This document shows positions 10,132 through 40,654 of a stretch of DNA of 64,000 bases, piece by piece. Source of the stretch: Deltaproteobacteria bacterium (GTDB taxonomy: Bacteria > Desulfobacterota > GWC2-55-46); the NCBI GenBank assembly GCA_016234935.1, contig JACRNL010000011.1, positions 129,472-193,471 on the forward strand. The letters run 5' to 3'. The position numbers and the translations under genes were made by a program. The notes beneath the pieces were generated by a model that was not told where the DNA came from, did not search any database, and was given only the letters and a program-made list of their open reading frames with translations. Positions within the stretch are counted from its first letter, which is position 1, and the number at the start of each line of letters is the position of its first letter.

Positions 10132-10146
10132 GTTTTTTTAAATCAA

Positions 10147-13871: not shown

Positions 13872-14737
13872 GCAAGGTTATCGGGGTAATTACGGCGAGA
13901 ATGGCGTCAACGCGCCTTCCGGGCAAGGTCTTGCTGAAGATGGCTGGTAAATCCATATTCGCGCATCATGCCGAGAGGATGCAGAACGTTAAGGGCCTTG
14001 ACGGGGTTTTTCTGGCCACGTCGGAAGACCCTCTGAATAAGCCGCTTATCGCGGAGGCGGAGCAAATGGGCTGCGGGTGGTTTGCCGGGGCTGAGCAGGA
14101 TATAGTGGACAGGCACATAAAGCTGTGCGAAAGGGAAGGGGCCGACGCCTTTATACGTGTCACCTGCGATTCTCCCATATTCGACATCGGGAGCGCGTCA
14201 AGGTTCGTATCCGAGTTCAGGAAGGAGTACAGGGACCTGATCTATGTCTCCAACATGACGATGATTCAGGGATCTCTGTCCGAGCTGCTCTCTTATAAGG
14301 CCATGGTCCAGGTGCATAAGCAGTACAGGGGCGCGGGCATCTCAATGCCTATAAAGGAAAATATGGATAAGTATAAGACCCTCGGCATAGAGATAGACGC
14401 CGACCTGTGCAGGCCTGAGTACCGCATAACGATTGACGAAGCCGTTGACATTGAAATGATAGGCAAGATATACGAGGCGCTCTATAAGGGCAGGCCGCTT
14501 GACCTTCATGAAGTATATACCTGGCTGGATGACTACCCCATGGTAGCGAAGATGAACATGCATGTCGGCATAAAGGGGTGCGAGCAGCAGAGCGCCAATC
14601 TGACGGAGATGCCGGTCTATACCGTAGTGAAGTCCGGCAAAGGCTTCGTGATACTCGATGAGCAAAAGCGCATGGTCGCGCCGGAGGATTTTATGTCAAG
14701 GGTTAAGGATATTTTCCCGCAACTAAAACGGGGATGA
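13868..14737 (+). CDS. SpsF/FlmC-type cytidylyltransferase-like protein (glycan pathway)
   Basis: VIGVITARMASTRLPGKVLL is typical of the SpsF/NeuA-like cytidylyltransferase family. Start at ATG 13868 overlaps the upstream stop. Confidence 0.65.
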   Translation: MSKVIGVITARMASTRLPGKVLLKMAGKSIFAHHAERMQNVKGLDGVFLATSEDPLNKPLIAEAEQMGCGWFAGAEQDIVDRHIKLCEREGADAFIRVTCDSPIFDIGSASRFVSEFRKEYRDLIYVSNMTMIQGSLSELLSYKAMVQVHKQYRGAGISMPIKENMDKYKTLGIEIDADLCRPEYRITIDEAVDIEMIGKIYEALYKGRPLDLHEVYTWLDDYPMVAKMNMHVGIKGCEQQSANLTEMPVYTVVKSGKGFVILDEQKRMVAPEDFMSRVKDIFPQLKRG

Positions 14738-14738
14738 A

Positions 14739-16037
14739 TTGATGACCATGAAAGACCGTTATATCCGTTCAGAAGAGATGCATAAAAGGGCGTTAAAGGC
14801 AATCCCTCTGGGCACGCAGACCTTCAGCAAGAGCAGTACCCAGTATCCGTTCGGCGTCTCCCCTTATTTTATAAAAAAGGGCAGGGGCTCGCATGTGTGG
14901 GACGTTGACGGCAACGAGTATGTTGACTTTATCAATTCCCTTGCCGCCATAACGCTCGGCTACAACGACCCTGACGTCGACGCGGCCGTGAGGGCGCAGC
15001 TTGAAGAAGGCGTGATATTTTCCCTGCCGCACGAACTTGAGATAAAGGCCGCTGAAAAGGTCATAGAGATGGTTCCGTGCGCCGAGATGGTCAGGTTCGG
15101 CAAGAACGGCTCCGACGCAACGGCCGGGGCGATACGGGTCTCAAGGGCCTTTACGAAAAGGGACCATGTCGCCGTGTGCGGCTACCACGGCTGGCAGGAC
15201 TGGTACATCGGCTCAACCGCGCGAAATCTCGGCGTGCCAAAGGCCACGCGCGAGCTGACGCATACGTTTACTTACAATAATATTGATTCGCTCGATAAGA
15301 TATTCAAGGATTACCCTAACGATGTGGCCGCAGTAATCATGGAACCGATGAACGTTTTTGAGCCGGTTGACGGATTCCTTGAAAAGGCCGCGGAGCTTAC
15401 GCGAAGAAACAACGCGGTCTTCATATTCGACGAGACCATCACGGGCTTTCGCTACGCAAACGGCGGGGCCGGCGAATATTTTAACGTGAAGCCCGACCTT
15501 GCCACATTCGGCAAGGGGCTTGCCAACGGCTATCCCGTTTCCGCGGTGGCCGGAAGGGCCGATATAATGCGGTTCATGGAGGATGTATTTTTTTCATTCA
15601 CATTCGGCGGAGAGACATTGTCCCTTGCCGCCGCTCTTACGACCATGGAAAAGTTGCAGAGGGAGCCTGTCATAAAGACCATCTGGTCTCAGGGGGCGAA
15701 GATACTTGACGGCCTTACTCCCCTTATTAAAAAGCACGGGCTTGAAGATATTCTTTCGACAGCCGGCAAGCCCTGCTGGTCTTTTCTGGTATTCAAAGAC
15801 GCGAAAGACTATACCATGTGGGAATTAAAAACACTCTTTTTGCAGGAGATATTCGCGCGCGGCGTGCTTACGCTTACCACGCACAACATGAGCTACGCGC
15901 ATACCGATGAGGACATCGCAAAGCTCCTCAAGGCGTATGACGAGGTGTTCGGGATGATGAAAGAGGCCGTGGAGGAAAAGTCGCTCTTGAAACTACTGCG
16001 CACGGAGCCTCTGGCTGCGCTCTTTAAAGTGAGATGA
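14739..16037 (+). CDS. Class III (GSA-aminomutase-like) PLP-dependent aminotransferase
   Basis: 432 aa. FIFDETITGFR and AT-III fold. Common in flagellin and nonulosonate glycosylation islands. Confidence 0.8.
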   Translation: MMTMKDRYIRSEEMHKRALKAIPLGTQTFSKSSTQYPFGVSPYFIKKGRGSHVWDVDGNEYVDFINSLAAITLGYNDPDVDAAVRAQLEEGVIFSLPHELEIKAAEKVIEMVPCAEMVRFGKNGSDATAGAIRVSRAFTKRDHVAVCGYHGWQDWYIGSTARNLGVPKATRELTHTFTYNNIDSLDKIFKDYPNDVAAVIMEPMNVFEPVDGFLEKAAELTRRNNAVFIFDETITGFRYANGGAGEYFNVKPDLATFGKGLANGYPVSAVAGRADIMRFMEDVFFSFTFGGETLSLAAALTTMEKLQREPVIKTIWSQGAKILDGLTPLIKKHGLEDILSTAGKPCWSFLVFKDAKDYTMWELKTLFLQEIFARGVLTLTTHNMSYAHTDEDIAKLLKAYDEVFGMMKEAVEEKSLLKLLRTEPLAALFKVR

Positions 16038-17107
16038 AGGTAATCTTCAGGACGGACGCCTCCGTCGCAATCGGCTCCGGCCACGCAATGAGGTGTCTGA
16101 CCCTTGCGGCCGCGCTCCGTGAAAAAGGCGCGGAGGTGGTTTTTATATGCAGGGAGCTTAAGGGCAATCTCTGCGCCTTCATCGAGGAAAAGGGTTATCG
16201 CGTGAGAAGGCTTCCTGTGCATTCGGATTCGGCGTTGCAAAAGGGCCTGTATGCGCGCTGGCTCGGAGTGGATATTGAAACAGACGCGGCGGAGACAATG
16301 GCCGCGATAGAAAAGGAAGGACAGGTGCGCTGGCTGGTTATTGACAGCTATGCCATTGACAAAAGGTGGGAGGCCCGCATGAGGCCGTTTGTGTCCGGCA
16401 TCATGGTGATTGACGACCTTGCCGACCGCGAGCATGACTGCGACATACTGCTGAACCAGAACCTTTACGACGACATGGAGGAAAGATACGCGGGTAAGCT
16501 CCCTATTCACTGCAAAAGGCTTTTTGGCCCTGAATACGCGCTTATTCGGCCAGAGTTCAGGGACGCAAGATTAAAGCGCGGGCAAAGGCACGGCAGCATC
16601 AGGCGCATACTCGTATTTTACGGCGGAAGCGACCTCACAAACGAGACCTCGAAGGCGTTAAGGGCGATTCAATCATTGAATATGCCTCAAGTGGCCGTTG
16701 ACGTGGTCGTTGGCAAGGCAAACCCGAATAGGGAAGAGATTGAGAAGCACGCATTTGCCCTTCCCAATGCGGCATTTTACTGCCAGACTGACGATATGGC
16801 GGAGCTTATGTCAAGGGCAGACCTTGCCCTTGGGGCCGGTGGGTCTTCCTCGTGGGAGAGGTGCTGCATGGGCCTGCCGGCTATAGTGACTGTCGTAGCT
16901 GAAAATCAGGCCGCGATAGCGGAAAACCTCGCCAAAAGAGGGATAGTGATAAATCTCGGCTGGCACGCGGACGCGAAGGAAGCTGATATACAAAATGCCG
17001 TTAAAGCCCTTATGGATGACCGCCAAAAGGTTTTGGAGATGGGCAAAAGGGCGTTAGGGCTTGTTGACGGAGACGGGGCCCTTAGGGCTGTTAAGGAGAT
17101 GATTTAA
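16034..17107 (+). CDS. pseG: UDP-2,4-diacetamido-2,4,6-trideoxy-beta-L-altropyranose hydrolase PseG
   Basis: MKVIFRTDASVAIGSGHAMRCLTLA N-terminus and GT-B-like fold, 357 aa. Sits between the aminotransferase and pseH. Confidence 0.85.
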   Translation: MKVIFRTDASVAIGSGHAMRCLTLAAALREKGAEVVFICRELKGNLCAFIEEKGYRVRRLPVHSDSALQKGLYARWLGVDIETDAAETMAAIEKEGQVRWLVIDSYAIDKRWEARMRPFVSGIMVIDDLADREHDCDILLNQNLYDDMEERYAGKLPIHCKRLFGPEYALIRPEFRDARLKRGQRHGSIRRILVFYGGSDLTNETSKALRAIQSLNMPQVAVDVVVGKANPNREEIEKHAFALPNAAFYCQTDDMAELMSRADLALGAGGSSSWERCCMGLPAIVTVVAENQAAIAENLAKRGIVINLGWHADAKEADIQNAVKALMDDRQKVLEMGKRALGLVDGDGALRAVKEMI

Positions 17108-17122
17108 AGAGAGGTTTCTTGC

Positions 17123-17605
17123 GTGAAGACATCCTTTAATTCAAAAGATGCAGAGATAAATTTCAGATATATTGATGAGTCTGACGTAGAAGATCTGTTT
17201 GAATGGAGAAATCACCCTGAGGTAAGGAAAAACTCTTTTAATATGGCTCCGTTAATATTCAAGGAGCATGAAGAGTGGTTTAAGAGAAAAATTAAAAACT
17301 CTGACACAACCATATATATGGCGTGTTGTGGTAATGACAAAATAGGTTCAATCAGATTTGAAGACAATGGCGAAGTTGAAAAAGTAAGCGTGATGCTAAA
17401 CCCGAAATTTACCGGCAAAGGCCTTGGCTCCAAAATTATCAGGATTGGAACGTGGAAATTTATAAGCGAAAAGAAGCCGGGTAAACCTGTTGTCGCGGAA
17501 ATTAAAAGGGATAATATAGCTTCAATCAAGGCCTTTGAAAGAGCCGGCTTCAAGGAAAGCTTCATAACCTTTATTTTCGACGAAAAGCAGGGGAATTTTG
17601 AATAA
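17123..17605 (+). CDS. pseH: GNAT N-acetyltransferase PseH
   Basis: 160 aa GNAT between pseG and pseI. GTG start. Markedly AT-rich (about 36-40% GC by eye) relative to its neighbours. Confidence 0.75.
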   Translation: MKTSFNSKDAEINFRYIDESDVEDLFEWRNHPEVRKNSFNMAPLIFKEHEEWFKRKIKNSDTTIYMACCGNDKIGSIRFEDNGEVEKVSVMLNPKFTGKGLGSKIIRIGTWKFISEKKPGKPVVAEIKRDNIASIKAFERAGFKESFITFIFDEKQGNFE

Positions 17606-18671
17606 CTCGATAAAAATTGGAAATAGGTTGATAGGCAAGGCCCATCAGCCGTTTGTCATCGCCGAGATGTCGGGCAACCACAATCAGTCGCTTGACCGGG
17701 CGTTGGCCATTGTCGAGGCCGCGGCAAAGGCCGGGGCACACGCGGTTAAGCTTCAGACCTACACCGCCGACACCATGACGATAGAGGCCGATAAAGGGCG
17801 GGACGCCCTTCAAGGGCTATTCTATATTGACGACCCCAAAAGCCTCTGGAAGGGCAGGTCGCTTTACGAGCTTTACAAAGAGGCGTATACGCCGTGGGAA
17901 TGGCACGGGCCGATTTTCAAGCGCTGCCGTGAATTGGATATTATTGGCTTTAGCACGCCGTTTGACGAGACGGCGGTTGACTTTCTGGAAGGCTTGAGCG
18001 TTCCGGCATACAAGATAGCGTCGTTTGAAAATAATCATCTGCCGCTTATAAAAAAGGCCGCGGCAACGGGTAAGCCCCTTATTATTTCAACCGGCATGGC
18101 GACTGTGGCCGAGCTTGATGAGGCTGTTTTAACGGCGCGTAAGGCCGGATGCAAGGATATCATACTTTTAAAATGCACAAGCGCCTACCCCTCCGTGCCG
18201 GATGACACGAATCTCAAGACCATCAGACATCTCAAAAAACTCTTTGACGTGGAAGCCGGGCTTTCAGACCATACGCTCGGCGTCGGCGTGGCCGCCGCGG
18301 CAGTGGCCCTCGGCGCGACGGTCATTGAAAAGCATTTTACGCTTTCAAGGGCGGACCACGGCGTGGACTCTGTCTTTTCCATGGAGCCTGACGAGCTAAA
18401 GCTCCTTGTGGATGAGACTAAAAAGGCGTGGCTGGCCCTCGGCAAGGTCTCATACGGCCCGACGGAAAGGGAAAGGGCGTCGTTAAGATTCCGCCGTTCC
18501 GTCTACGTTGTGAAGGACGTGGCAATGGGCGGGAAGTTCACAACGGAAAATACAAGGATAATAAGGCCGGGTGACGGCCTTTCGCCAAAGTATTACGACG
18601 TGATAATCGGCAAGACGGCCTCGCGCCACATAAAAAAGGGCACGCCGATGAATTGGGAGATGGTTTTGTAG
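17598..18671 (+). CDS. pseI: Pseudaminic acid synthase PseI (NeuB family)
   Basis: QPFVIAEMSGNHNQSLDRAL... is a NeuB-type TIM barrel. C-terminal SAF/antifreeze-like domain. 357 aa. Confidence 0.9.
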   Translation: MNNSIKIGNRLIGKAHQPFVIAEMSGNHNQSLDRALAIVEAAAKAGAHAVKLQTYTADTMTIEADKGRDALQGLFYIDDPKSLWKGRSLYELYKEAYTPWEWHGPIFKRCRELDIIGFSTPFDETAVDFLEGLSVPAYKIASFENNHLPLIKKAAATGKPLIISTGMATVAELDEAVLTARKAGCKDIILLKCTSAYPSVPDDTNLKTIRHLKKLFDVEAGLSDHTLGVGVAAAAVALGATVIEKHFTLSRADHGVDSVFSMEPDELKLLVDETKKAWLALGKVSYGPTERERASLRFRRSVYVVKDVAMGGKFTTENTRIIRPGDGLSPKYYDVIIGKTASRHIKKGTPMNWEMVL

Positions 18672-18697
18672 CAGGTAAAATCTTCTATTGCGGGGGG

Positions 18698-19255
18698 ATG
18701 ATGAAAACAAGGCCGATATTCCTTGAAGGGAAAGATATCTTTCTCGGGCCGTTGTCGAAAGACGACAACCTCGATGATTACGCAAGCTGGCTTAATGACG
18801 CGGAAACAACACGCTACATGGGAAGCGGAAGGTTTCCGTTAGCCGCCGAAGGCCTCATGGACTATATTGGCCACTACAATAGCGGCAAGGACGGCATGCT
18901 CCTTGGGATATTTCTTAAAAAACCGGTCAGGCACATAGGCAACATAACGCTCCATCAGATAGACTGGAGAAACAGGCACGCGGAGATAGGTATTCTAATT
19001 GGCGACAAAAAGGCGCGCGGCAAAGGCTACGCGAAAGAGGCCGTGATTCTTGCGGCGCGCCATGCGTTTACGCGCTTAAATCTGAGGAAGCTTACGGCCG
19101 GCATGATAAAGGGCAATGAAGCGTCGAAAAGAGTCTTTGAGAAAGCTGGCTTCAAGGTCGAGGGCGTGCTTCGTGAGCACTTTTTTCTTGACGGTGAATA
19201 CCTCGATTGCTTAAGGCTCGGGCTTCTGAGAAGCGAATTTGTTGACATGGGCTGA
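18698..19255 (+). CDS. GNAT family N-acetyltransferase (RimL-like)
   Basis: GNAT core at HAEIGILIGDKKARGKGYAKEAV. Start at ATG 18698 after SD gcgggggg. Confidence 0.75.
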   Translation: MMKTRPIFLEGKDIFLGPLSKDDNLDDYASWLNDAETTRYMGSGRFPLAAEGLMDYIGHYNSGKDGMLLGIFLKKPVRHIGNITLHQIDWRNRHAEIGILIGDKKARGKGYAKEAVILAARHAFTRLNLRKLTAGMIKGNEASKRVFEKAGFKVEGVLREHFFLDGEYLDCLRLGLLRSEFVDMG

Positions 19256-19398: not shown

Positions 19399-20178
19399 AT
19401 GTCAATCAGCGGAACGATCAAAGGGGCGGCGCTCCCTTTTTATAAATGGATATACGACGCGGTAATGGGCAATAAAGAGTCGCGGTATCTCTATTACAGG
19501 CTCGCCGTATTCCTCTCCACGCGCGGCATTGCCCCGTTGCTGGCGCCTTCGGCCTCGTCCGTGAAAGAGAGATGGCGCAGGCAGGGGCAGGACAGCGCGG
19601 CTGACAATCCCGCCACTTACGCAGTGGAGGATGCGTCTGTTCGCGAGCTTTTCAGGGATGTTTTTCCTTGTCTGGGTAAAGACAGCCGCATACTTGAGAT
19701 AGGCTGCAATGCCGGGCGTTCTTTGAATTATCTTTACAAAAACGGCTTCAGGAATCTGACAGGCGTTGAGATAGGCCCTGAGGCCGTGGAACTCATGAAG
19801 ACAGCCTTCCCTGAAGCATACAGGGGCAGCACAATTATAGTTGGCGACGCTTCTGATGCAGTCAAGAGGTTTAAGGAGGGGGAGTTCGACCTCGTTTTCT
19901 GTCACTCGGTTCTTGTGAACATACATCCGAGATACAATCATATTTTCAGGGATATGGCGAGGATAAGCCGCAAATTCGTATTGATACTGGAAAACGAGGG
20001 CAGTTGCACGGCGTATCCGCGCGACTTCAAGAGGCTGTTTGAAAAAGAGGGGCTTAAGATGGTCGCGTTCAGGGTGCTTGCCGGCGCCGATGCCGCGATA
20101 CCCGCGCCATTCGAAGACAGGCATATATACGTGAATAACACCATAAGACTTTTCGTAAAGGATAAATCTTCTTTCTGA
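19399..20178 (+). CDS. Class I SAM-dependent methyltransferase
   Basis: Motif I ILEIGCNAGR, 259 aa. The opposite-strand 263-aa ORF that fully overlaps it is judged a shadow ORF. Confidence 0.75.
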   Translation: MSISGTIKGAALPFYKWIYDAVMGNKESRYLYYRLAVFLSTRGIAPLLAPSASSVKERWRRQGQDSAADNPATYAVEDASVRELFRDVFPCLGKDSRILEIGCNAGRSLNYLYKNGFRNLTGVEIGPEAVELMKTAFPEAYRGSTIIVGDASDAVKRFKEGEFDLVFCHSVLVNIHPRYNHIFRDMARISRKFVLILENEGSCTAYPRDFKRLFEKEGLKMVAFRVLAGADAAIPAPFEDRHIYVNNTIRLFVKDKSSF

Positions 20179-20198: not shown

Positions 20199-22310
20199 AT
20201 GCCGGGTTATGTCAAGGATGTTTTGTGCGGCAAGCGTATTTATATGAAAATCAGGTTTTACAGCTATTTCGGCGCCCTGCAGGTGATGTCGGTCTTTTTG
20301 TCAGGGGCGGGAAAGGAGATATACTATTTCGATATATCCGCGGCAGGCAAGGCCTTGCTTGGCCTCTTGAATATGAAAGGCCGCGTCAAGCCTTTTGAGT
20401 TCATCTTAGCCGAAGTAAAGGATTCAACCGGTCAGAGTTATTTCCCGAGGATATACGGAAGAGATATCGTGGCCGTATGCGACGTGATAGAGAATGACGT
20501 ATTCAGGAAAAACCCTCTAATAGACGCGCTTGGAAATATCTTTGACAGGGAAAAGATAATCCTGTATTTCAGAAAGATCGCAGGCAAGGAAATAGCCGAA
20601 AATATCGCATTCTTAAATGTTATTTCGTGGCACTGCCAAACGGTATCGGGCAATAAGCCTGATGCCGTTGAGTTTTTTATAGAGAGCACGGCGTACTACA
20701 GGGCGTTAAGAGATTTTGCGCTGAGAGAGCACCGGATATCGCTTGGCTGGCAGGTCTCCTCAAGAAAGATGTTCAGGTTTTTTTACCCGCTAATTGGGAA
20801 TGTGTTCCTTTCGGTTCTGCTGTGTTTTAGACCGCTTGCAAGCTTTTTTAGCACGACAAAAAAGCTGCCATCAGATAAATCCAGGCCGGTTCTTGCCAGT
20901 TTATATACTGTCAGGGGATTGACCTTTGACCGCACGAAGCGCTGCGATTTCCCCTGGCTGCTCATGTCTGAAATGTCACGCGAGCAGATATTGATCTATT
21001 TCGACAGAAAGGACCTGCCGGTCACGGACGATATGGCTGAGTTGCTGAGGCGGCAGGGTGTCAACTGCATGGCGATGTCTGCCGAGGCAACCAGCGTAAG
21101 CGGGATGCCTGTTTTCGTCCCTTCGTTCGTAACCGTGAAAAAGCTCCTCAGGCAGACCGGCCGTGTTTTATTTGCCGCTTTTAAAGAGGCATCCCGTCTC
21201 AGGTTGCGCTCATTAGTTTATTTGAGCGCTGGCATTCGTTTCGCGAGAGAATATTCCGTTGCATACGATTTTTACCTTTCCAATAATATTAAGATAAATA
21301 TGGATTTTATTGATTTTGACCCCAACCGGATACCGAGGAGCCTTGCGCTGAGAGACGCGGGCGGGGTAAGCATAAGCTATCAGGTGTCTAACTGGCCCAT
21401 ACCCAACGTGATACTTGGCACGGGCGCGGATATCTTTTTCATGTTCGGGCCGCACTATTTGAAAAATTTTCTTAAAGGCGGCGCCTGTAATGACGCCGTT
21501 GTTTATACCGGATATACGTCTGATTATTCATTTGCCGCAGTTAAGGAAAGGGCAAGGGATTTGCGGGAGAGGCTTGTGGGGAGCGGTGCGCAGTTTGTGG
21601 TCGCTTATTTCGATGAGAACTCCGCCGGGGGCAGGATGAGCATCATCCCGCATAAAACAGCCGCGGTAATCTATAAAAGACTTTTGGAGCTGGTCGTAGC
21701 GGATGGAACCATTGGTCTTATTTGCAGCCCTAAGCGCCCCAAGACCCTTCTTAAGCGAATGCCGGAGCTTTCATCTCTTTTGAAAAAGGCAAAGGATACG
21801 GGCAGGTGTCTGTTTATCGAGGGAGAATACGCCACTGACAAATATCCTGCCGAATCAGCGCAGGCCTCAGACCTTGTGATAACTTTATTGATAGGCGGCA
21901 CTACGGCGCTGGAGAGCCACCTTTGCGGCCAAAGGGCGGTCTTCCTTGATCTGGAAGGGTTTTATTCCTACACGGAATATGAATGGGGCAGGAACACCAT
22001 CGTCTTTGACGATATGGACGCTCTAATATCGGCTATCGAAAGATTCCGGCAGGATGGGCAGGCAAACGACGCGCTGGGCAATCCCGCGCTGATACGAACG
22101 CTTAATGAAAAAGATCCGTTCCGCGACGGGAAGGCCGCCGAAAGGATGGGGCAGTATCTGAACTGGCTGCTTGAGGCCTTTAACCAGGGCGGGACAAGGC
22201 AGGACGCGATCGCGTCCGCCAACAGCAAATATGCGGAGCAATGGGGCAAGGAAAATATCGTAAGGCTTGAATATCCGGCAGGGAGCCGTTTGTCGCCGGA
22301 TAAGGATTGA
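20199..22310 (+). CDS. Large hypothetical protein with GT-B-like C-terminal signature (putative glycosyltransferase), 703 aa
   Basis: C-terminal ...DLVITLLIGGTTALESHLCGQRAVFLD resembles the GT-B donor-binding motif. Lower GC than its flanks. No other motif recognised. Confidence 0.45.
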   Translation: MPGYVKDVLCGKRIYMKIRFYSYFGALQVMSVFLSGAGKEIYYFDISAAGKALLGLLNMKGRVKPFEFILAEVKDSTGQSYFPRIYGRDIVAVCDVIENDVFRKNPLIDALGNIFDREKIILYFRKIAGKEIAENIAFLNVISWHCQTVSGNKPDAVEFFIESTAYYRALRDFALREHRISLGWQVSSRKMFRFFYPLIGNVFLSVLLCFRPLASFFSTTKKLPSDKSRPVLASLYTVRGLTFDRTKRCDFPWLLMSEMSREQILIYFDRKDLPVTDDMAELLRRQGVNCMAMSAEATSVSGMPVFVPSFVTVKKLLRQTGRVLFAAFKEASRLRLRSLVYLSAGIRFAREYSVAYDFYLSNNIKINMDFIDFDPNRIPRSLALRDAGGVSISYQVSNWPIPNVILGTGADIFFMFGPHYLKNFLKGGACNDAVVYTGYTSDYSFAAVKERARDLRERLVGSGAQFVVAYFDENSAGGRMSIIPHKTAAVIYKRLLELVVADGTIGLICSPKRPKTLLKRMPELSSLLKKAKDTGRCLFIEGEYATDKYPAESAQASDLVITLLIGGTTALESHLCGQRAVFLDLEGFYSYTEYEWGRNTIVFDDMDALISAIERFRQDGQANDALGNPALIRTLNEKDPFRDGKAAERMGQYLNWLLEAFNQGGTRQDAIASANSKYAEQWGKENIVRLEYPAGSRLSPDKD

Positions 22311-22314
22311 TGCA

Positions 22315-23787
22315 ATGTCCCTCGGCGAAAAGAACATAAGAAACTTCTTCATCTACATCTTTCCGAAGTTCGTCGGCTACGGGGTGCAGTTCGTTACGCT
22401 TCCGATCCTGACGCGCATACTTTCCCCTGCGGACTTCGGCGTCGTGACGATGACCATGCTCTTTGCAACGCTCGGGGCAAGCGTCCTTACGCTCGGGATA
22501 ACCTCCGCCGCTCAAAGATACTATTTTGAGTATAAGCCCGGCGGAGACGGCCTGAACGCGCTGGTGTTTTCCTCCCAGCTCTTTTTGTATCTCATGCTGG
22601 CGGTTTCTTCGGCAGCCGCCTTTTTCTTCAAGGACCGTGTCGCGCTCCTGATTACCGGAGACGCAAAGTATGGCACAGCCGTCTTCCTTATGTTCATCGC
22701 CGGGTACCTCGGACAGGTCATTAATTTTTATCTTTATATGTACCAGAACATGGAAAAGGCGTCGTGGCACTCGGCCTTCAACATTTCAAGGAGCGTCCTG
22801 ACGGGCGCTTTGAGCCTGCTGCTCGTCTGGCATTTCAGGATGTCCTACATGGGGATGATCTGGGCGTCCCTTGCGGCCACGGCCGCAGTGTGCCTTGCCA
22901 TGTTCGTGCTGTTTAACAGGGGTTTTACTTTCCGCTTGAGCTTTAGGGTGCTGATTGACAATATAAAGTTCGGGCTTCAGATAGTGCCAAAGTCGCTTAC
23001 GGGCTTCATAAACCTGTATTTTGACAAGTATATGATAAACAACATGCTCTCGCTCTCCGCGGTGGGCGTCTACAACATAGGGCAAAGCGTAGGCAATCTC
23101 GCCTTTTTCTTGATGAGTGCCATCTGGTCTTCTTTTCAGCCGGTCTATTACAGGGACGTCTTTGACCGGGGGGCCGAGGCATCGGGGAACGTGGGCAGGA
23201 TATTCACCATATTCGCCTACATATCGCTGGCGCCGCTCCTTGTCCTGATACTCTTTGCGGGAGAGGCGCTGTCCGTAATAGCCCCGCCCGCGTATTACGG
23301 CGCGCTCGACGTGATAATAATCATTTCCGCCGGCGTGGCCACGCAGACCTTCGGCATGTATGTCGGCGTGCAGTATGCCTACACCAAAAAGGCTTATTGG
23401 CTCTTTCCGATAACCGTTGCAGGGACCATAGTGAACGTGATTGCGAACGTCATCCTTATCCCGCGTCTGGGGCTTACGGGCGGCGCCGTCTCCTCGGCGC
23501 TTTCCACGGCGGCCTTTAACGTCATAGCGATAGCAATAGGCCAGAGGATTTACAGGATCGGGTATGAATGGAAGCCGATAGCGGTCTTATACGCGCTGAT
23601 AGCGCTGGCAATACCTTCGGCGCTCTACGTAAGGACGGATGCCTTCCCGTTCGCCGTTGTCTACGGCATTAAGCTCTCGCTCATAGCGTTCTATCTTTTT
23701 GCCGGGATAAAGACGCGTATAATAACAGAGACTTCGATTAAAAAGGTCGCCGGTTCACTGTTTAACTACCGGAGGAAGGAGGCCTGA
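22315..23787 (+). CDS. wzx: Wzx-like oligosaccharide flippase (MOP/polysaccharide biosynthesis protein family)
   Basis: About 490 aa with 12-14 TM helices throughout. Start at ATG 22315, just after the upstream stop. Confidence 0.75.
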   Translation: MSLGEKNIRNFFIYIFPKFVGYGVQFVTLPILTRILSPADFGVVTMTMLFATLGASVLTLGITSAAQRYYFEYKPGGDGLNALVFSSQLFLYLMLAVSSAAAFFFKDRVALLITGDAKYGTAVFLMFIAGYLGQVINFYLYMYQNMEKASWHSAFNISRSVLTGALSLLLVWHFRMSYMGMIWASLAATAAVCLAMFVLFNRGFTFRLSFRVLIDNIKFGLQIVPKSLTGFINLYFDKYMINNMLSLSAVGVYNIGQSVGNLAFFLMSAIWSSFQPVYYRDVFDRGAEASGNVGRIFTIFAYISLAPLLVLILFAGEALSVIAPPAYYGALDVIIIISAGVATQTFGMYVGVQYAYTKKAYWLFPITVAGTIVNVIANVILIPRLGLTGGAVSSALSTAAFNVIAIAIGQRIYRIGYEWKPIAVLYALIALAIPSALYVRTDAFPFAVVYGIKLSLIAFYLFAGIKTRIITETSIKKVAGSLFNYRRKEA

Positions 23788-23790
23788 GCC

Positions 23791-24687
23791 ATGAAGGACG
23801 CGTGCAACCTGTGTTTGTCGGATGGTTTTGAGCTTGTAAAATCTGCGCTGCGCGACCAGGGCGCGGAGCAAAAGGTTTATAGATGCCTTGCTTGCGGACA
23901 TGTTCAGCTCCTGCCGAGGCCGACGGCCGAGGAGGATAGCGCCTTTTACGACGCTAACCGTCAGGACAGAAACAGGGGTAAGGAGATAGATTACGAAAGG
24001 CTCCGGCTGAACAACCTCTTTGATACGGAAAGACATGTTAGTCTTATAAAAGGGCTTTGCGCGGACAAGGGTTCGCGGATACTTGATATCGGGGCGGGCT
24101 ATGGGTTTTTCGTCAACAGGCTCTACGGTGCCGGATACACAAAAGCAATGGGTATAGAGGTGAGTGAAGAAAGGCGGGCTATGGCCGTAAACCGCGGGCG
24201 CGCGGAGATTATCGACTTCGATGTTTTAAGCCCAGGGTGTGACATCGGCAGGTTCGCCATTGTAACGCTTTTTCACGTGCTGGAGCACATGGCCGACCCT
24301 GTTGCATTTTTAAGGGGTATTAAGGGCCTGCTAAGCGACGGCGCTGTCTTTGTATGTGAGGTGCCTAACGTAAACGAACTTCTTCTTGAGAGATCTAAGA
24401 CGTACAACGATTTTTATTGGATACGGGCTCACCTTAATTACTTTAGCGCCAAGACACTTGTTGATTGTTTTACAAAGGCAGGTTACGCGGGCGTACAGAT
24501 GCGCTTTGAACAGAGGTATGGGCTTTTGAATATGTGTAACTGGCTTTCAAAAGGCACGCCGCAGATAGACCATCCGGTATTCGAAATAGACGGCGCGTAT
24601 AAGCCGGTTGAGGATTTTTACAGGGAGCATCTTGCGTCAATGAGAAAGACGGACACGATAGTCGCGGTTGCAGGGCTGAAAAAATGA
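23791..24687 (+). CDS. Class I SAM methyltransferase with N-terminal CxxC...CxxC zinc ribbon
   Basis: CNLC...CLACGH zinc ribbon, then motif I ILDIGAGYG. 298 aa. Confidence 0.75.
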   Translation: MKDACNLCLSDGFELVKSALRDQGAEQKVYRCLACGHVQLLPRPTAEEDSAFYDANRQDRNRGKEIDYERLRLNNLFDTERHVSLIKGLCADKGSRILDIGAGYGFFVNRLYGAGYTKAMGIEVSEERRAMAVNRGRAEIIDFDVLSPGCDIGRFAIVTLFHVLEHMADPVAFLRGIKGLLSDGAVFVCEVPNVNELLLERSKTYNDFYWIRAHLNYFSAKTLVDCFTKAGYAGVQMRFEQRYGLLNMCNWLSKGTPQIDHPVFEIDGAYKPVEDFYREHLASMRKTDTIVAVAGLKK

Positions 24688-26624
24688 AGTATGTAGTAAT
24701 TGAGTTCATTGACGAATATAAGGCTTTTATAGAGTTTCTCGGTAAAGGTAAAGGCCGGCTTGAGGATTACGTCATAGTAGCCATTGAGCCAAAGCTCGAG
24801 GCCTATCTTGAGGCCAATGGCGTGAGATATCGCAATACCCTTAATTATTTCGACACCGGATCCCAAAAAAGGATATTGAGAGCGACCGAGAAGGTAATGG
24901 AGTATATAGAGAGAAACTTCACTTTTACGGATTCCGGCGGGCTCAGGAGCTGTTACGAAAAGGAGTTCGCGCATTATGTAAGGTTGTATATGAATCATAT
25001 GTTCAAGATGTTGGAGATATTCGGTGGTATTCGCGCGGAGGACAGCGGTTGTGAGTTATACGCGTGCGGAGGCGGTTCAATGACCGCGACTGCCATTATG
25101 TCGGACGATGAGAGATATCTCGCAAGGCTGGCGGCAGGCTTCGCTGATGCGCATAATCTTAGTTTTACGGATTTCAATGGAGATGCATCGGTATCCGCCG
25201 CGCCGGTTAGAGGCGGCTATGTAAATTCGGCAAATTTCGTTGTAAAACTCCTCAGCAGGGCAACGTTGTCGCTTTTTACCGGTAAAAAGACGATTTTTGT
25301 GCCGCGAATGGGGCATGTTTTCAAAGACATGGCAAAGCGGTTGTCGGCAAAGGACAGGCGAGTGGTCTTTGTGGCAATAGACTATACGGAAGGTTTTCTA
25401 TATGCGGCGGTCTTTAACGCGCTTTCTTTCTTCAAGTCGCTAACGGGGAGACAGCCATATAGAAATTATATCGTCAACGTGAATTTTTTCCGCAGCGCCG
25501 TATCTCATGACGAGTGTGAAAGATTGACGCAATGTGTTGATTCCATCGTCGAGCGCGGCGGACTGTTTGAATATAATGGCGTAGATTGCCGGGCGTTGAT
25601 TAAAATGAAGGTGGACGCAGGGCTTAAAGCCCACCTTTTGCGCATGCTCCACAGCTCGCATAATCTCAGTTATATGTTCGGCAGGATGAAAAGGTGGATG
25701 GTGATGTCGTTTTCCGGGCTCGACGCGATGGCCGTGGCCGGGGAGCTTACAAGAAGGCTCGGCGAAAGGTCTTTGTTTGTTTCCCACGGCGCGCATCCGG
25801 CGCCGTCGGATGAGTATCATGAAATAGAGCTTTTACGGCTGTGCAGGAGTTTCATGCTCAGCGACTACACGCACGTTGCTCTGAGCAGTCCCGTGCAGGA
25901 GGAGCATCTTCGTTACTTTAAGCGCAAATACGATTGGGTCGGTAATATTGAATTGAAGACAGGTCCGCTGGTTTTTGCCGACGTGATGGATATGGATAAA
26001 TCCGAAAGCAAAATAAGACTGGGCATACCTCCGGGCAACATTGTGCTGACTCATGCCACGACCACCAAGGCAAGGCACGGCGAAAGGTATTATTTTCTCG
26101 AAACATTGGATGAGTTTTTTGCGAGCCTTTCTGATATTGTCCGGTGCGTGGATGAGCGCCGCGGCGTGAGCCTGATAATAAGGGTCCATCCGGGGTTCCG
26201 TTTGAATGATGAAGAGATAAAAGCGCTTTTGCCGGCGTCTGCGAAATTCATTATACACAGGGATGGCCCCTTTAGCGAGGCGCTCTCGGCCACGGACGTC
26301 CTTATAAGTTATTCTTCGACCGCTATAGACGAGGCGCTCATGAATAAAATCCCGGTCTTGCTTTACGACAGGTGGAGCAGGTATAATCATTTCAAGACAG
26401 GTGTTTTTGAGGGGTCTTCGTCGCCGGATATTTTTCCTGTATGTTATGTGAACGCAAGAGAAAAACTGGCCGGAGCGGTTGAATATATGCTGGGAAAGAC
26501 CATGGCTGTTGATAAAAAAGATTTTGACAATGGCAGGTTCCGCTACTCGGAAGATTATTCCGAAAACCTCTTTAAGTTCGTTGAGGGCTCCTTGAATGCG
26601 CGTCAGCCCGGAGGGTTGCCATGA
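24684..26624 (+). CDS. Large hypothetical protein with GT-B-like C-terminal signature (putative glycosyltransferase), 646 aa
   Basis: C-terminal ...VLISYSSTAIDEALMNKIPVLLYD is a TagF/GT-B-like donor-domain motif. AT-shifted composition. Confidence 0.5.
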   Translation: MKYVVIEFIDEYKAFIEFLGKGKGRLEDYVIVAIEPKLEAYLEANGVRYRNTLNYFDTGSQKRILRATEKVMEYIERNFTFTDSGGLRSCYEKEFAHYVRLYMNHMFKMLEIFGGIRAEDSGCELYACGGGSMTATAIMSDDERYLARLAAGFADAHNLSFTDFNGDASVSAAPVRGGYVNSANFVVKLLSRATLSLFTGKKTIFVPRMGHVFKDMAKRLSAKDRRVVFVAIDYTEGFLYAAVFNALSFFKSLTGRQPYRNYIVNVNFFRSAVSHDECERLTQCVDSIVERGGLFEYNGVDCRALIKMKVDAGLKAHLLRMLHSSHNLSYMFGRMKRWMVMSFSGLDAMAVAGELTRRLGERSLFVSHGAHPAPSDEYHEIELLRLCRSFMLSDYTHVALSSPVQEEHLRYFKRKYDWVGNIELKTGPLVFADVMDMDKSESKIRLGIPPGNIVLTHATTTKARHGERYYFLETLDEFFASLSDIVRCVDERRGVSLIIRVHPGFRLNDEEIKALLPASAKFIIHRDGPFSEALSATDVLISYSSTAIDEALMNKIPVLLYDRWSRYNHFKTGVFEGSSSPDIFPVCYVNAREKLAGAVEYMLGKTMAVDKKDFDNGRFRYSEDYSENLFKFVEGSLNARQPGGLP

Positions 26625-29465: not shown

Positions 29466-30896
29466 TTGAAGATACTGTTTATTCTGCCGGACGTTGATTC
29501 GTTCCACAGGCTTAATATACACTTCGGGATAGCCACCCTTGCCGGGTTTCTAAAGGCCAACGGCTATAACGACATTAGATTTCTTGCGGTTACGAGCGTA
29601 GAGGACTATGCGCGCATAATACGCGAGGTGGAGGCGTATAAGCCCGATATCGTAGGGTTTACATCCGTTGAGACGCAGTTCAAGCATGTTATCGCCCTTT
29701 CAGAGAAGATAAAAGAGGCGCATAAATGCATCGTCGTGCTCGGCGGGGTCTTCATCACGCTATTTCCTGAGAGCGTCAAGGACGCAAAGGCCCTTGACGG
29801 GGCCTTTAAGGGCGAGAGCGAACAGGCGCTGCTTAATTTCGTCCGGGCCGTTGAAAATGGGGCGGATTACAGGCAGGTTAATAACTTCTGTTATTACGAT
29901 GAAAAGGAAGGCAGGGTCATCCAGAACAGGCTGTCGCCAATGGAGGACAACCTCGACCTTTTTGGAATACCCGACCGCGGGATATTCGATTTCCAGAGCG
30001 TCATCGACTCCTACGGCGGGGCCGCGCCATTCATGTTCAACCGCGGCTGTCCGTATAACTGCTCGTTTTGCTCCAACCACGCGCTGGCATCCGTCTACGG
30101 CAGGCTGAGCAACAAGACCAGGAGAAGGAGCGTTGACCTGTGCATAAAAGAGATAAAGGGCGTCACTTCGAGCTATAAGCTCGAAGTCATACATGTCTGG
30201 GACGATCTTTTCACATCGCACAGGAAGTGGATGCAGGAGTTCCTTGATAAATACAAAAAAGAGGTCGGGCTGCCTTTCATGTGCACGACGCGGTCAAACC
30301 TCTGCGATGAAGAGCTCTTTAAGGCCCTTAAAGACGGCGGCTGCTACAGGGTGCACATGAGTCTTGAGTCAGGCAACGACTTTGTAAGAAATAAGGTCAT
30401 GAGGAGAAATATCTCAAAGGCGCAGATAGAAAAGTCGTTCGGCCTTGCCCGTAAATACGGAATCGAGGTCAGCGCGTCTTCCATCATCGGTCTGCCGTTT
30501 GAGACCCCGGAAATGATAGATGAGACTATCGGCCTCCTGGGCTCGCTCAAGGTGGAAAGCTGCGGGGTGAATATCTTTCATCCGTATAAGGGTACGCACC
30601 TTTACAAGGTCTGCGAGGAATACGGGATGCTTGTTAAGGAGGATGAGATGCATGGCATCATGGAAAGAAGGGAGAGCATATTGAATCTCCCGCATGTAAG
30701 CAGGGAGAAGCTCAAGCATTACTTTGACAATTTCGAGATGTTGGTGAGGCAGAAGGAAGGCGCCCTGCCTTACCTTAAATGCAGGCTGAAGGCGACCGCG
30801 AAGAAGCTTCTCCCTGAGACCATACAGGGCGTGATAAGGAAGGCACGTAAAAAGAAAGGCAGAGTGCAGGACTTTCCGGACGGTCTTGAGGAATGA
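29466..30896 (+). CDS. Cobalamin (B12)-binding radical SAM protein, class B
   Basis: N-terminal B12-binding domain. CxxxCxxC motif CPYNCSFC. 476 aa. TTG start. Confidence 0.8.
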   Translation: MKILFILPDVDSFHRLNIHFGIATLAGFLKANGYNDIRFLAVTSVEDYARIIREVEAYKPDIVGFTSVETQFKHVIALSEKIKEAHKCIVVLGGVFITLFPESVKDAKALDGAFKGESEQALLNFVRAVENGADYRQVNNFCYYDEKEGRVIQNRLSPMEDNLDLFGIPDRGIFDFQSVIDSYGGAAPFMFNRGCPYNCSFCSNHALASVYGRLSNKTRRRSVDLCIKEIKGVTSSYKLEVIHVWDDLFTSHRKWMQEFLDKYKKEVGLPFMCTTRSNLCDEELFKALKDGGCYRVHMSLESGNDFVRNKVMRRNISKAQIEKSFGLARKYGIEVSASSIIGLPFETPEMIDETIGLLGSLKVESCGVNIFHPYKGTHLYKVCEEYGMLVKEDEMHGIMERRESILNLPHVSREKLKHYFDNFEMLVRQKEGALPYLKCRLKATAKKLLPETIQGVIRKARKKKGRVQDFPDGLEE

Positions 30897-30909
30897 TAGA
30901 AGGTATGGC

Positions 30910-31680
30910 ATGAGCCGCATCATGAACGGCATTAAGAGAAGGCTCAGGAATATCTCCAAGCTCAAGGGCGCGTGGAGGCCCGGGTTTTTGTGGCTTTATA
31001 AAAACCGTTATCTCCGTATGGACGCCAACGTCGACATAAACGACTTAAGGCGGCGGCGCTTCCATCTGGACCGCTACGAGTTCGCCGCGCGCTCGATACA
31101 GGAGATTAAAAAGGCGGGCGCGTCCATACTCGACGCCGCATGCGGCACCGGCTACGGGACGAATATCCTTGAAAAGAGCGGGGCAGGGCGCGTGATAGGC
31201 GTTGACATAAGCCCTGAGGCAATAGAATACGCGCAGAAGAAATACGGTAGCGGAGTCGCGTCTTTTAAGGCGTCGGACGTGAGTAAGCTCGATAAGGCCG
31301 CGCTTTGCGCGGACGGCTTTGACGCTGTCGTGTCGTTCGAGACCATAGAGCATATCGATGATCCGCTGGCATTTTTAAAGTGCGTAGCCGGCCTGCTTAA
31401 AAAAGACGGCATCTTCATAGTCTCCACCCCGAATAAATGGGGCGTAACAAAAGACCACAAGATAGACTACGATTACGGGTTGTTCAGGGATCATCTGGAA
31501 AAGTTTTTTGAAATAGAATCCATATGGGCGCAAAACAGCGGCTGCATGGAGGAGTGGATAAACAGGGGACAGGAAAGAAGGCTCATAAGGGCGGCTCCGC
31601 AGAATATCGAAGAGGCCGAATGTTTTCTCGCCATATGCAGGCAAAAGTCAACAAAGCCCGCGGACGCTGAAAAAAGATGA
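30910..31680 (+). CDS. Class I SAM-dependent methyltransferase
   Basis: Motif I ILDAACGTGYG. Start chosen at ATG 30910 (SD gaagg). The ORF is also open from 30886. Confidence 0.7.
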   Translation: MSRIMNGIKRRLRNISKLKGAWRPGFLWLYKNRYLRMDANVDINDLRRRRFHLDRYEFAARSIQEIKKAGASILDAACGTGYGTNILEKSGAGRVIGVDISPEAIEYAQKKYGSGVASFKASDVSKLDKAALCADGFDAVVSFETIEHIDDPLAFLKCVAGLLKKDGIFIVSTPNKWGVTKDHKIDYDYGLFRDHLEKFFEIESIWAQNSGCMEEWINRGQERRLIRAAPQNIEEAECFLAICRQKSTKPADAEKR

Positions 31681-32708
31681 CCGTAATGGCAGACATAGAC
31701 GCAGGGCCGCCTATTTTCCGGCACACAGGCAGGGCGCACATCAGGCTCGGCAAGGGGCAAAAGGCCGTCCGCGACGCGCTCATTGGAAAACTTGATCAAG
31801 GTATATACCGGCTTGAAGAGGTCAAGTGCCTGTGCGGCATGACGGAGGATGTTGTTATTTCCGAGACCGACAGATACGGTCTGCCGCTTAAGACCGTCAT
31901 ATGCACTTACTGCGGCCTTCTGAGGACAAACCCGAGGCTTGACGCAGGTTCGCTTGACGGTTTCTACGCGAACGAATACCGGGACCTGTACATGGGGGCC
32001 GACTACGGCGACATGGACAGCTACTTTCTCGACATGGCCGCAAGGGGACGGGAAGCGCTTGACCTCATTAGAAAGACCGCGCCCTGGGTTGACCTGAAAA
32101 AGGCCGATGTGCTTGAGGTCGGCTGCTCCGCCGGCGGCGTGCTCTTTCCTTTTCTCGAGGCGGGCGCAAGGGTCAAGGGGTTTGACCATGACAGGCGCTA
32201 TCTGGATTACGGCAATAAGCGGGAACCGGCATTGAATCTTCTGCCGGGCGGCGTGGAAACGCTTGAAAAGGAAGATTGCAAATACGATATCATCTTGATA
32301 AACCACGTCATGGAGCACCTTGCCGATCCCGCGGGCGCGGCCTCGGCGGCAAGAAAGAGGCTCAAGCCGGGCGGGCTTTGCTATGTCTCCGTGCCCGGCC
32401 TGAAGAACCCCGCTTACTACAACAGCCCCGTAAAAAGTTTTTTAGGCTCGCTTCACATAGGGCATCTATGGCATTTTTCAAGGCTGACGCTTCGGCGCCT
32501 GTTAAAGGACTTTGACATGCTTTATATAGACGACGAAGTGCGGGCCGTATGCGCCTTGTCGCGGGCGGGAAGAGTTGAAAAGGATTTTCCGTCAGAGTAT
32601 GCATCGAACATGGAATTTATCCGGGACTATGAAAATGCCTTTGCGTGGAAGTTAAGGCGCGCAAGGAACGTCATTAGAAATATCCGCCATTTGATCAAGC
32701 TCGTGTAG
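31677..32708 (+). CDS. Class I SAM methyltransferase with N-terminal zinc ribbon
   Basis: CLCG...CTYCG zinc ribbon, then motif I VLEVGCSAGG. 343 aa. Same architecture as 23791-24687. Confidence 0.7.
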   Translation: MTVMADIDAGPPIFRHTGRAHIRLGKGQKAVRDALIGKLDQGIYRLEEVKCLCGMTEDVVISETDRYGLPLKTVICTYCGLLRTNPRLDAGSLDGFYANEYRDLYMGADYGDMDSYFLDMAARGREALDLIRKTAPWVDLKKADVLEVGCSAGGVLFPFLEAGARVKGFDHDRRYLDYGNKREPALNLLPGGVETLEKEDCKYDIILINHVMEHLADPAGAASAARKRLKPGGLCYVSVPGLKNPAYYNSPVKSFLGSLHIGHLWHFSRLTLRRLLKDFDMLYIDDEVRAVCALSRAGRVEKDFPSEYASNMEFIRDYENAFAWKLRRARNVIRNIRHLIKLV

Positions 32709-33673: not shown

Positions 33674-33707
33674 CCCCTGTCAGCGGTGAAAAGCGTCATT
33701 ACAAAAT

Positions 33708-33734: not shown

Positions 33735-33769
33735 CCCTCTTTTCCAAAGGTGGGAAATAAAAATATGAG

Positions 33770-37825: not shown

Positions 37826-37876
37826 GCGGCCCCCGCTTAGGGCACGCGAGGGCAGGAACGGTTTGATAGGACGAGG

Positions 37877-37913
37877 GTTGAACCCCCTGAGGGGGTTCGA
37901 CCCCTTCAAGGGG
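37877..37913. repeat. Repeat family R1 copy, inverted orientation
   Basis: aaccccctgagggggttcgaccccttcaagggg is the reverse complement of the 28463 element. Confidence 0.8.
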
Positions 37914-37918
37914 CATGA

Positions 37919-38929: not shown

Positions 38930-38999
38930 GCCGCGTTTCGCGGCATGATGATTTTTGTTTGCGAGGGCGTATGCTGATTTTAAGATGGAGGGCAGGGCT

Positions 39000-40620: not shown

Positions 40621-40654
40621 ACCCCGGTGGACAGTAATCAGGAGGAGAGAGCGC

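Follow-up and report, generated by a model that had tools for sequence, protein, structure and literature searches.

The step by which pseudaminic acid (Pse), legionaminic acid (Leg) and their relatives are handed on from their CMP-activated forms is the least known in bacterial sialic-acid-like glycobiology; to our knowledge, the only Pse and Leg transferases with experimental support are Maf/FlmG, KpsS1 (GT118) and the enzymes of Tannerella forsythia. Which proteins might perform this step is the question raised by a glycan cluster in a metagenome-assembled genome of a Deltaproteobacteria bacterium (Desulfobacterota; GenBank assembly GCA_016234935.1). We analysed 64,000 nucleotides of its 266.5-kb contig JACRNL010000011.1 (positions 129,472 to 193,471 of the forward strand), referred to here as the window, whose own numbering is used throughout. 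Three large open reading frames (ORFs) of the cluster lie on the + strand at 20199-22310, 24684-26624 and 33770-35590 and encode proteins of 703, 646 and 606 amino acids (aa), hereafter A, B and C (HZB82_08670, HZB82_08685 and HZB82_08725), each of which NCBI labels 'hypothetical protein'. A first-pass annotation had located these ORFs correctly, had taken them for one family of GT-B glycosyltransferases (GTs) and had linked them to CMP-activated nonulosonic acids. This last link is supported here by the gene context and by remote homology to the BFO_1060 transferases of T. forsythia. On the evidence of fold, motifs, remote homology and neighbourhood, A, B and C are probably three distinct cytoplasmic GT-B transferases that use CMP-activated, Pse-derived nonulosonic acids, a reading that we favour with moderate confidence.

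Three families of one distant superfamily

Among the three proteins, BLASTP detects only the B-C pair (E=6e-4 over 71 aa; A-B and A-C, E>1), and hhalign assigns probabilities of 8% to A-B, 63% to A-C (403 columns) and 88% to B-C. At a relaxed threshold the hhalign alignment of B and C is collinear over almost their full length; in it, B H368 and C H367 stand 5 residues apart, within a region of low confidence, and are not established as equivalent. Orthologues that align over the full length number about 35 for each protein, a different set in each case (32-82% identity), and no ORF in 59 loci was matched by two of the family hidden Markov models (HMMs) at E<1e-5. By ordinary criteria, A, B and C do not form a single family; we see them as separate families that share an architecture within one distant superfamily.

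That architecture emerges from AlphaFold2 models built from the family alignments of A (pLDDT 90.5, pTM 0.90) and B (pLDDT 88.5, pTM 0.89), which bear out the proposed GT-B fold, B being TagF/TagB-like. The secondary structures of the two models run parallel: an extra alpha/beta domain of roughly 200 aa at the N terminus, then two Rossmann-like domains. Foldseek searches of the PDB with either model returned GT-B proteins only, many of them at E 1e-7 to 1e-9. For A, the matches were headed by UDP-GlcNAc 2-epimerases (6e-8) and included HepE, OGT, TagF (4.7e-5) and the Cps3 multienzyme; for B, they were headed by NeuC (4.6e-9) and included VldE, CalG1, the Cps3 multienzyme (8.6e-8), TarL with CDP-ribitol (1.4e-7) and TagF (2.2e-7). 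C is tied to the GT-B set through B by their hhalign probability. When the PDB was searched by sequence and by profile, neither the three proteins and their family profiles nor a B orthologue positive for PF04464 gave any meaningful match.

The C-terminal stretch from which a single family had been deduced does lie at equivalent positions in the three proteins (A, T568-ALE572-SHLCG-QRAVFL-D584; B, T546-AIDE550-ALMNKIPVLLY-D562; C, T519-VAAE523-ALRMGLPVIYL-D535), and within each family little or no variation is seen at its Thr, Glu and Asp. It is a generic GT-B helix-strand element, however, and not the TagF or KpsC signature for which it had been taken. The accompanying statement that the proteins lack other catalytic motifs does not extend to B and C, both of which have an invariant His and an invariant HP motif, nor to the TagF-like SYSST of B. 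The invariant residues of B comprise H368, K462, R464, R468, H502-P503-G504, S542-Y-S-S-T546 and D549-E550 (SYSST-x-IDE), forming three motifs that we take to be like YAPTWR, HP and TDYSS of the TagF family. Those of C comprise Q366-H367, R422-Q423, R473, H475-P476, Y515-T-W517, T519 and E523 (YTWTT-x-x-x-E). Residues kept in at least 93% of 133 divergent sequences of the A family are Q395, D442, D472, E473, R536, D558, T568, E572, D584, D643 and R649. The HP position of this family is occupied by K-P in 116 of the 133 sequences and by S-P in the window's subclade (K/S-P511), and the position aligned to the invariant H367 of C is variable. Clustered at 50% identity, the A family, which is covered by no Pfam or NCBIfam model, is represented by 1011 sequences at E<=1e-30 and by 2030 at E<=1e-3.

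No conserved transmembrane segment was found in the A, B and C families, which fits cytoplasmic or peripheral enzymes. A hydrophobic helix of A (residues 198-216) was considered as a transmembrane segment and rejected, its hydrophobicity varying across the family. The translation start of A is probably the ATG at 20244, giving 688 aa, because NCBI places the start at 20244, orthologues miss the first 15-25 residues and residues 1-13 of the model have pLDDT <50. That of C is at 33770, and not at the shorter NCBI start, because orthologues cover C fully and Ile4 is nearly invariant. We note that in the 96-bp gap upstream of C (33673-33770) a short GC hairpin, ccccttgaagggg, precedes a GGTGG Shine-Dalgarno-like site; this arrangement may act within the operon as a small element of a regulatory or terminator-like kind.

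Conserved gene neighbourhood

The strongest evidence that A, B and C are CMP-nonulosonic acid transferases comes from their conserved gene neighbourhood. A scan limited to one genome from each GTDB species yielded 51 loci from more than 15 phyla, nearly all of them in metagenome-assembled genomes (MAGs), and all fetched loci were searched with the family HMMs and with the window's own proteins; the locus counts are lower bounds, many contigs being incomplete. Orthologues of A, B and C share contigs in a Nitrospiraceae MAG (our loci L001/L012), a Margulisiibacteriota-type contig (L003), Saganbacteria, Ignavibacteriae, Brocadia MAGs and others. The gene order is near-constant: pse genes, GNAT, methyltransferase, A, Wzx, methyltransferase and B, then a 221-aa CTP_transf_3 gene, a dehydroquinate synthase (DHQS)-like gene, a short-chain dehydrogenase/reductase (SDR), one or more methyltransferases, a SPASM radical S-adenosylmethionine (SAM) gene and C. 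The Margulisiibacteriota-type and Saganbacteria loci have A immediately ahead of C.

The window follows this order within one unbroken + strand run (9103-43819). The SAM methyltransferase directly upstream of A (19399..20178) is like the Pse-associated methylase (TIGR03587, E=1.8e-12), a Wzx-type (MOP) flippase is encoded between A and B (22267..23787; PF01943, 5.8e-24) and the stop of a further SAM methyltransferase gene (23791..24687; PF13489, 5.7e-21) overlaps the start of B. The stop of B in turn overlaps by 4 bp the start of the gene for a PseF-like, 221-aa CTP_transf_3 cytidylyltransferase (26621-27286), which is translationally coupled both to B and to the DHQS-like gene after it. The cassette linked to B continues with genes assigned to the DHQS/AroB-like (27283-28434) and SDR (28633-29421) families. 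C is flanked by two radical SAM genes, one encoding a radical SAM/SPASM (twitch) protein directly upstream (32744..33673) and the other a SPASM-like protein whose start overlaps the stop of C (35587..36465).

Within 10 kb of the A gene, a NeuB-like gene was found in 34 of 53 distinct A-family loci, a CTP_transf_3-like gene in 29 and either of the two in 40; by rough estimate rather than computation, a NeuB homologue would be expected within that distance of well under 1% of random genes. Of the 53 loci, 25 had Wzx, 18 had B and 21 had C. Among 55 A-family genes, a homologue of the 19399..20178 methyltransferase was the nearest matched gene on the upstream side in 8, and a Wzx homologue was the nearest on the downstream side in 16. 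For B, a homologue of the 23791..24687 methyltransferase lies directly upstream in 11 of 20 B genes and a cytidylyltransferase of the 221-aa type directly downstream in 16 of the 20. The DHQS-like gene occurred in 12 of 19 loci with B (including L001, L003, L005, L006 and L009) vs none of 36 without it, and the SPASM radical SAM homologue in 13 of 23 loci with C vs 5 of 32 without it.

A typical locus has one to three CTP_transf_3 genes and one to four long, Pfam-less proteins of the A/B/C kind. Divergent A-like genes are also found in Leg-type loci with LegB-like, PtmE-like and LegC-like genes, several of which also include a NeuB-like synthase (L044, L045, L048 and L030). A-family genes, often accompanied by Wzx, B or C, occur furthermore in a Woesearchaeota MAG of the DPANN archaea (L043), in Uhrbacteria (L031), in Ca. 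Brocadia (L018/L034), which has B homologues as well, and in Scalindua (L049). This presence in archaeal, candidate phyla radiation (CPR) and anammox genomes points to wide horizontal spread of the cluster.

The composition of the genes bears on the unit of such transfer. Two of the three had been described as AT-shifted and hence acquired; their GC contents (A, 49.5%; B, 48.5%; C, 52.8%) compare with a cluster-gene mean of 52.9 +/- 4.1%, leaving A and B within about one standard deviation, and the whole cluster has 52.9% GC vs 53.7% for the window. With the whole cluster syntenic across phyla, separate acquisition was rejected, and the unit of horizontal transfer, if any, is the whole syntenic cluster and not the single gene. 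By far the strongest compositional outlier is the PseH-like GNAT gene at 17123-17605 (37.3% GC; 41% at third codon positions), which may reflect the recent replacement of one gene.

Some related loci carry additional variants. Longer A- or C-family ORFs are found in L052 (1316 aa), L027 (900 aa) and L024 (927 aa, C-like), and L008 encodes at 7671-9986, among several long genes without Pfam matches that stand in a row, a 771-aa ORF with a PIG-L deacetylase domain. Such ORFs may have arisen by fusion or may represent multi-domain variants. A 574-576-aa HMGL-like protein is encoded in L001 (12682-15480), in L007 (1551-3281) and in the JGI 3300072015 locus of P0084, a module that the window lacks. 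It carries an MptE-like (DUF115/Maf-type) match in two of the three loci (575-576 aa), and a PfkB kinase and a further cytidylyltransferase adjoin its gene in L001 and the P0084 locus.

Remote homology

Family scans covered 37 members of the A, 34 of the B and 32 of the C family (103 in total), BFO_1060 matches being counted at E<=0.05. The BFO_1060 model (NF046086) matched 14 of the 37 A members (best 3e-6), 30 of the 34 B members (best 8e-9) and 11 of the 32 C members (best 8e-9). TIGR04396 matched 7, 27 and 27 of them, respectively, and TIGR04326 none in A, one in B and 29 in C (best 1.6e-19). Applied to the window itself, BFO_1060 gives 16.9 bits for A and 23.6 bits for B against a cut-off of 200, and nothing for C at E<=0.01, while TIGR04326 gives 55.6 bits for C (E=3e-15; cut-off 250) over positions 340-544 of its 602. 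Because the scores lie far under the cut-offs, none of A, B and C is a member of BFO_1060, TIGR04396 or TIGR04326; C itself is distantly related to the TIGR04326 ('surface carbohydrate biosynthesis') family. The B family is further matched by DUF6716 ('putative glycosyltransferase'; 21 of 34 members), and Pfam scans of the A and C families returned nothing. We place A, B and C, which are very distantly related to one another, in a loose TagB/TagF-like group with the BFO_1060 transferases, TIGR04396 and TIGR04326.

Of the relatives detected for all three families, only the BFO_1060 transferases of T. forsythia have been tested by experiment. Knock-outs of Tanf_01245 and TFUB4_00887, which belong to this family, lose the terminal Pse5Am7Gra or Leg derivative of the surface-layer O-glycan (PMC5420450). 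The two were described as GT-B proteins of a TagB-like kind that have a D/E-D/E-G and an HP motif, the latter reported as a CMP-Neu5Ac-binding motif of bacterial sialyltransferases (PMC5420450).

The other relationships put forward by the first-pass annotation fared less well. Neither PF05159 (KpsC/KpsS) nor PF01973 (Maf/DUF115) matched any of the 103 family members at E<=0.1, and no KpsC, WbbB or KpsS1 structure was among the top 50 Foldseek PDB matches of A and B. The analogy with KpsC was accordingly abandoned, and membership of the KpsC and Maf families was rejected. A relationship with TagF was upheld in part: PF04464 is matched, weakly, by 7 of the 34 B-family members (best 5e-10), and is matched neither by window A, B and C at E<=0.01 nor by any A- or C-family orthologue.

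Alternative explanations

Several observations weigh against A, B and C being CMP-nonulosonic acid transferases. Their scores against the curated families are 17-56 bits vs cut-offs of 125-250. The top Foldseek matches are UDP-GlcNAc 2-epimerases and NeuC, not transferases, with modest TM-scores (target-relative) of 0.55-0.63. Window A is without both of the histidines that are invariant in B and C. The cluster encodes one NeuB-type synthase and two CTP_transf_3 cytidylyltransferases for three candidates, so that at least one of them may use another donor. Finally, an acceptor, a Wzy polymerase and an initiating phosphoglycosyltransferase were not identified in the cluster.

A bolder version of the transferase reading, which we entertain only tentatively, makes A, B and C three new families of GTs for CMP-activated, strongly modified nonulosonic acids at the assembly core of a conserved island of about 20 genes that spreads horizontally among Omnitrophota, Margulisiibacteriota, Saganbacteria, anammox Planctomycetes, CPR bacteria and even a Woesearchaeota MAG. 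The multi-residue glycan of this island would contain several consecutive or differently modified nonulosonic acids, and A would be independent of His, with Lys/Ser-Pro and Asp-Glu in its site.

The missing histidines of A admit a narrower explanation, namely that only B and C use CMP-nonulosonic acids and that A has another donor, such as a nucleoside diphosphate (NDP)-sugar, or another chemistry. The Ser at the HP position of A (Lys in most of its family), the retention of D472-E473, R536 and D558 instead, the weakest BFO_1060 link of the three families (14 of 37) and the presence of two CTP_transf_3 genes for three enzymes are all suggestive of it. Yet A is the family found most tightly beside NeuB, GNAT and methyltransferase genes, in loci with Pse-type and with Leg-type genes alike, and Lys-Pro could fill the phosphate-binding role of His-Pro. 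We regard this division of labour as unlikely.

Somewhat less likely again are TagF/TarL-type phosphotransferases, which would move an alditol- or sugar-phosphate from a CDP donor and build phosphodiester links of a teichoic-acid-like or capsule-like polymer. The PF04464 matches in the B family (best E=5e-10), the likeness that we see between the motifs of B and those of the TagF family, the TagF, TarL-CDP-ribitol and Cps3 multienzyme structures on the Foldseek lists and the glucose-1-phosphate cytidylyltransferase encoded in the window are what such enzymes would lead one to expect. The conserved partners of A, B and C, however, belong to CTP_transf_3, the family of CMP-ulosonic acid synthetases. 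The one CDP-forming enzyme identified was the window's glucose-1-phosphate cytidylyltransferase, which recurs in only a minority of the related loci. PF04464, moreover, misses window B and the A and C families altogether, and the tested T. forsythia relatives are TagB-like too, yet move nonulosonic acids.

The head of the Foldseek lists could alternatively indicate that the three are no transferases at all and that they act in nonulosonic acid synthesis as GT-B-fold nucleotide-sugar 2-epimerases or hydrolases of the NeuC/LegG/PseG kind. The best structural matches, non-hydrolysing UDP-GlcNAc 2-epimerases for A and NeuC for B, are joined by weak matches to the PseG model in 3 of 32 C-family members and by PF02350 (UDP-GlcNAc 2-epimerase/NeuC) in a single B member (E=0.017). 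But the Pse pathway of the window is already complete, including a bona fide PseG, and the epimerases have about 370 aa vs 600-700 aa for A, B and C. Glycosyltransferases, TagF and TarL among them, stand lower on the same lists by only a few orders of magnitude in E-value. The consistent signals at family level point to transferase families, the likeness to epimerases being one of fold only, and we consider such a role very improbable. It is because of the conserved CTP_transf_3 partners and the complete Pse pathway that both the TagF-type and the epimerase explanations are disfavoured. Least credible of all, and a more extreme form of the island reading, is B as a pseudo-glycosyltransferase acting on a carbocyclic, dehydroquinate-derived CMP donor supplied by its DHQS-like neighbour.

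Proposed mechanism

If A, B and C are indeed three CMP-nonulosonic acid transferases, what we infer of donor identity, acceptor, order of action and catalytic residues is the following. The C-terminal Rossmann domain would, by analogy with other GT-B enzymes, bind the CMP-activated nonulosonic acid through the HP motif in B and C or K/S-P in the A family, the [ST][ST]xxxE helix and the Asp past the next strand; the middle Rossmann domain and the N-terminal domain would presumably hold an oligosaccharide-lipid acceptor. The donors are probably different derivatives of one Pse scaffold produced by PseBCHGI. They may be made by the cluster's two CTP_transf_3 cytidylyltransferases, either one served by a redox or amination cassette of its own, together with the methylases. 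The cassette around the cytidylyltransferase at 13853-14737 would comprise a Gfo/Idh oxidoreductase and a class-III aminotransferase and be ElaA/ElaB-like, and that around the cytidylyltransferase at 26621-27286, with the DHQS-like enzyme and the SDR, could be an analogous oxidise-reduce cassette. Transfer would take place onto a lipid-linked oligosaccharide at the cytoplasmic face of the membrane, before flipping by the Wzx encoded between A and B.

Other genes of the cluster and the window

The glycan cluster lies between a GidA/TrmFO-type gene and an efflux operon of the MacAB-TolC kind. Its first part (9103..19255) is a Pse biosynthesis block in which PseB, PseC, PseG and PseI score above the NCBIfam equivalog cut-offs, and which further encodes a B12-radical SAM protein, a Gfo/Idh oxidoreductase, a 294-aa CTP_transf_3 cytidylyltransferase, a class-III aminotransferase, a PseH-like GNAT and a second GNAT. 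The Gfo/Idh, cytidylyltransferase and aminotransferase genes (12888-16037), the last of which is GSA-aminomutase-like, sit between pseC and pseG, an insertion that is also kept in other phyla; by analogy, this set suggests the addition of an extra amino group at the level of the CMP-sugar. The stretch downstream of the SDR of the B-linked cassette (29466..32708) has a B12-radical SAM gene and two SAM methyltransferases by family assignment, presumed to be sugar-modifying enzymes. Downstream of C, the distal part (36653..43819) encodes a GT4, LegB, a PtmE-like nucleotidyltransferase, epimerases/reductases, the glucose-1-phosphate cytidylyltransferase and a GT2.

In total, the cluster has two CTP_transf_3 genes, five SAM methyltransferases, two B12-radical SAM genes, two SPASM/twitch radical SAM genes and several SDRs. 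The four radical SAM genes lie at 11362-12891, 29466-30896, 32744-33673 and 35587-36465, and related loci have up to four or five; this wealth of radical SAM and methyltransferase genes implies that the sugars undergo C-methylation or radical reactions of an unusual kind. The DHQS-like protein (27283-28434) scores 318.6 bits vs an AroB equivalog cut-off of 305, though sited in a glycan cluster. Its cassette may perform the oxidise-reduce epimerisation of a CMP-ulosonic acid or, more speculatively, yield a carbocyclic product; a literature search on dehydroquinate synthase in nonulosonic acid clusters returned nothing relevant. LegB (above cut-off) and the PtmE-like nucleotidyltransferase are encoded together at 37919-39713. 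No LegC-, LegG- or LegI-type gene and no second NeuB was found in the window; what the pair supplies may therefore be a GDP-linked 6-deoxy-amino sugar and not Leg.

Outside the cluster, the window encodes at 9-3311 an 1100-aa fusion of a major facilitator superfamily (MFS) transporter with acyltransferase and AMP-binding (acyl-ACP-synthetase-like) domains, a lysophospholipid recycling protein of the LplT/Aas type, which is followed by an ABC-2 transporter pair. Further on come a chaperone-usher pilus cluster (49121-54398; SCPU-domain subunit, PapD-like chaperone and usher) and, downstream of it, a cytochrome oxidase operon (55344-58524) with multihaem cytochromes.

Significance and comparison with known systems

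The idea that TagB-like GT-B proteins transfer nonulosonic acids is already known (PMC5420450). The families of A, B and C stand outside all curated models, and our literature search found no paper describing them. They offer targets for enzymology, also with a view to the chemoenzymatic synthesis of Pse glycosides, and their loci suggest that a so far unstudied surface glycan is widely shared among uncultured phyla and anammox bacteria.

Among the models that recognise these families, TIGR04326 (LIC13510-type), with 602 profile positions, is similar in length to C, and TIGR04396 scores 16-18 bits vs a cut-off of 125, though all three families match it. Neither NCBIfam family has a tested function, and no paper in the library searched mentioned TIGR04326, TIGR04396, LIC13510 or DUF6716.

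The proven transferases of the field differ from A, B and C in several respects. Maf/FlmG proteins (PF01973, MptE-like/DUF115) move Pse or Leg from CMP donors onto flagellin and belong to a different fold family; no flagellin gene was found in the cluster. KpsS1 (GT118), KpsC/KpsS (GT107), WbbB (GT99) and KrkA (GT140) are retaining ulosonic-acid transferases with modified GT-B folds, CMP-activated ulosonic or nonulosonic acid donors, as proposed for A, B and C, and a double-displacement mechanism with an Asp nucleophile (PMC12887879). KpsS1 is a proven Pse transferase encoded beside pse genes. PF05159 gave no signal in the 103 family members, and no structure of these transferases, KrkA included, was among the top 50 Foldseek matches of A and B.

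For the donor side, the closest comparison is with the CMP-Leg 8-epimerase ElaABC, in which ElaA is a Gfo/Idh/MocA enzyme and ElaB a CTP transferase (PMC13656337). The cytidylyltransferase at 13853-14737 and its Gfo/Idh neighbour resemble ElaB and ElaA, with an aminotransferase in place of the reductase (SDR) of ElaABC. The notion that ElaA might be DHQS-like was dropped in view of its assignment to Gfo/Idh/MocA (PMC13656337), and for the DHQS-like cassette the analogy is only loose.

TagF, TarL and TagB, phosphotransferases for CDP-glycerol or CDP-ribitol (PF04464; PDB 3L7J, 8VA1), share with A and B, as modelled, the GT-B fold and an N-terminal extension, and use a cytidine nucleotide as donor, as is proposed for A, B and C. 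The neighbours in the window, however, make CMP-sugars and not CDP-alditols, and glycosyl transfer would be expected in place of phosphodiester formation. Of the T. forsythia transferases, the BFO_1060 match to the window proteins spans only about 100 residues of the C-terminal domain (17-24 bits), and their length is about 445 aa vs 606-703 aa here, an extra N-terminal domain being modelled in A and B. Like B and C, and unlike window A, which is without that His, they carry the HP motif in the C-terminal domain, and like all three they are encoded beside a locus for CMP-nonulosonic acid biosynthesis.

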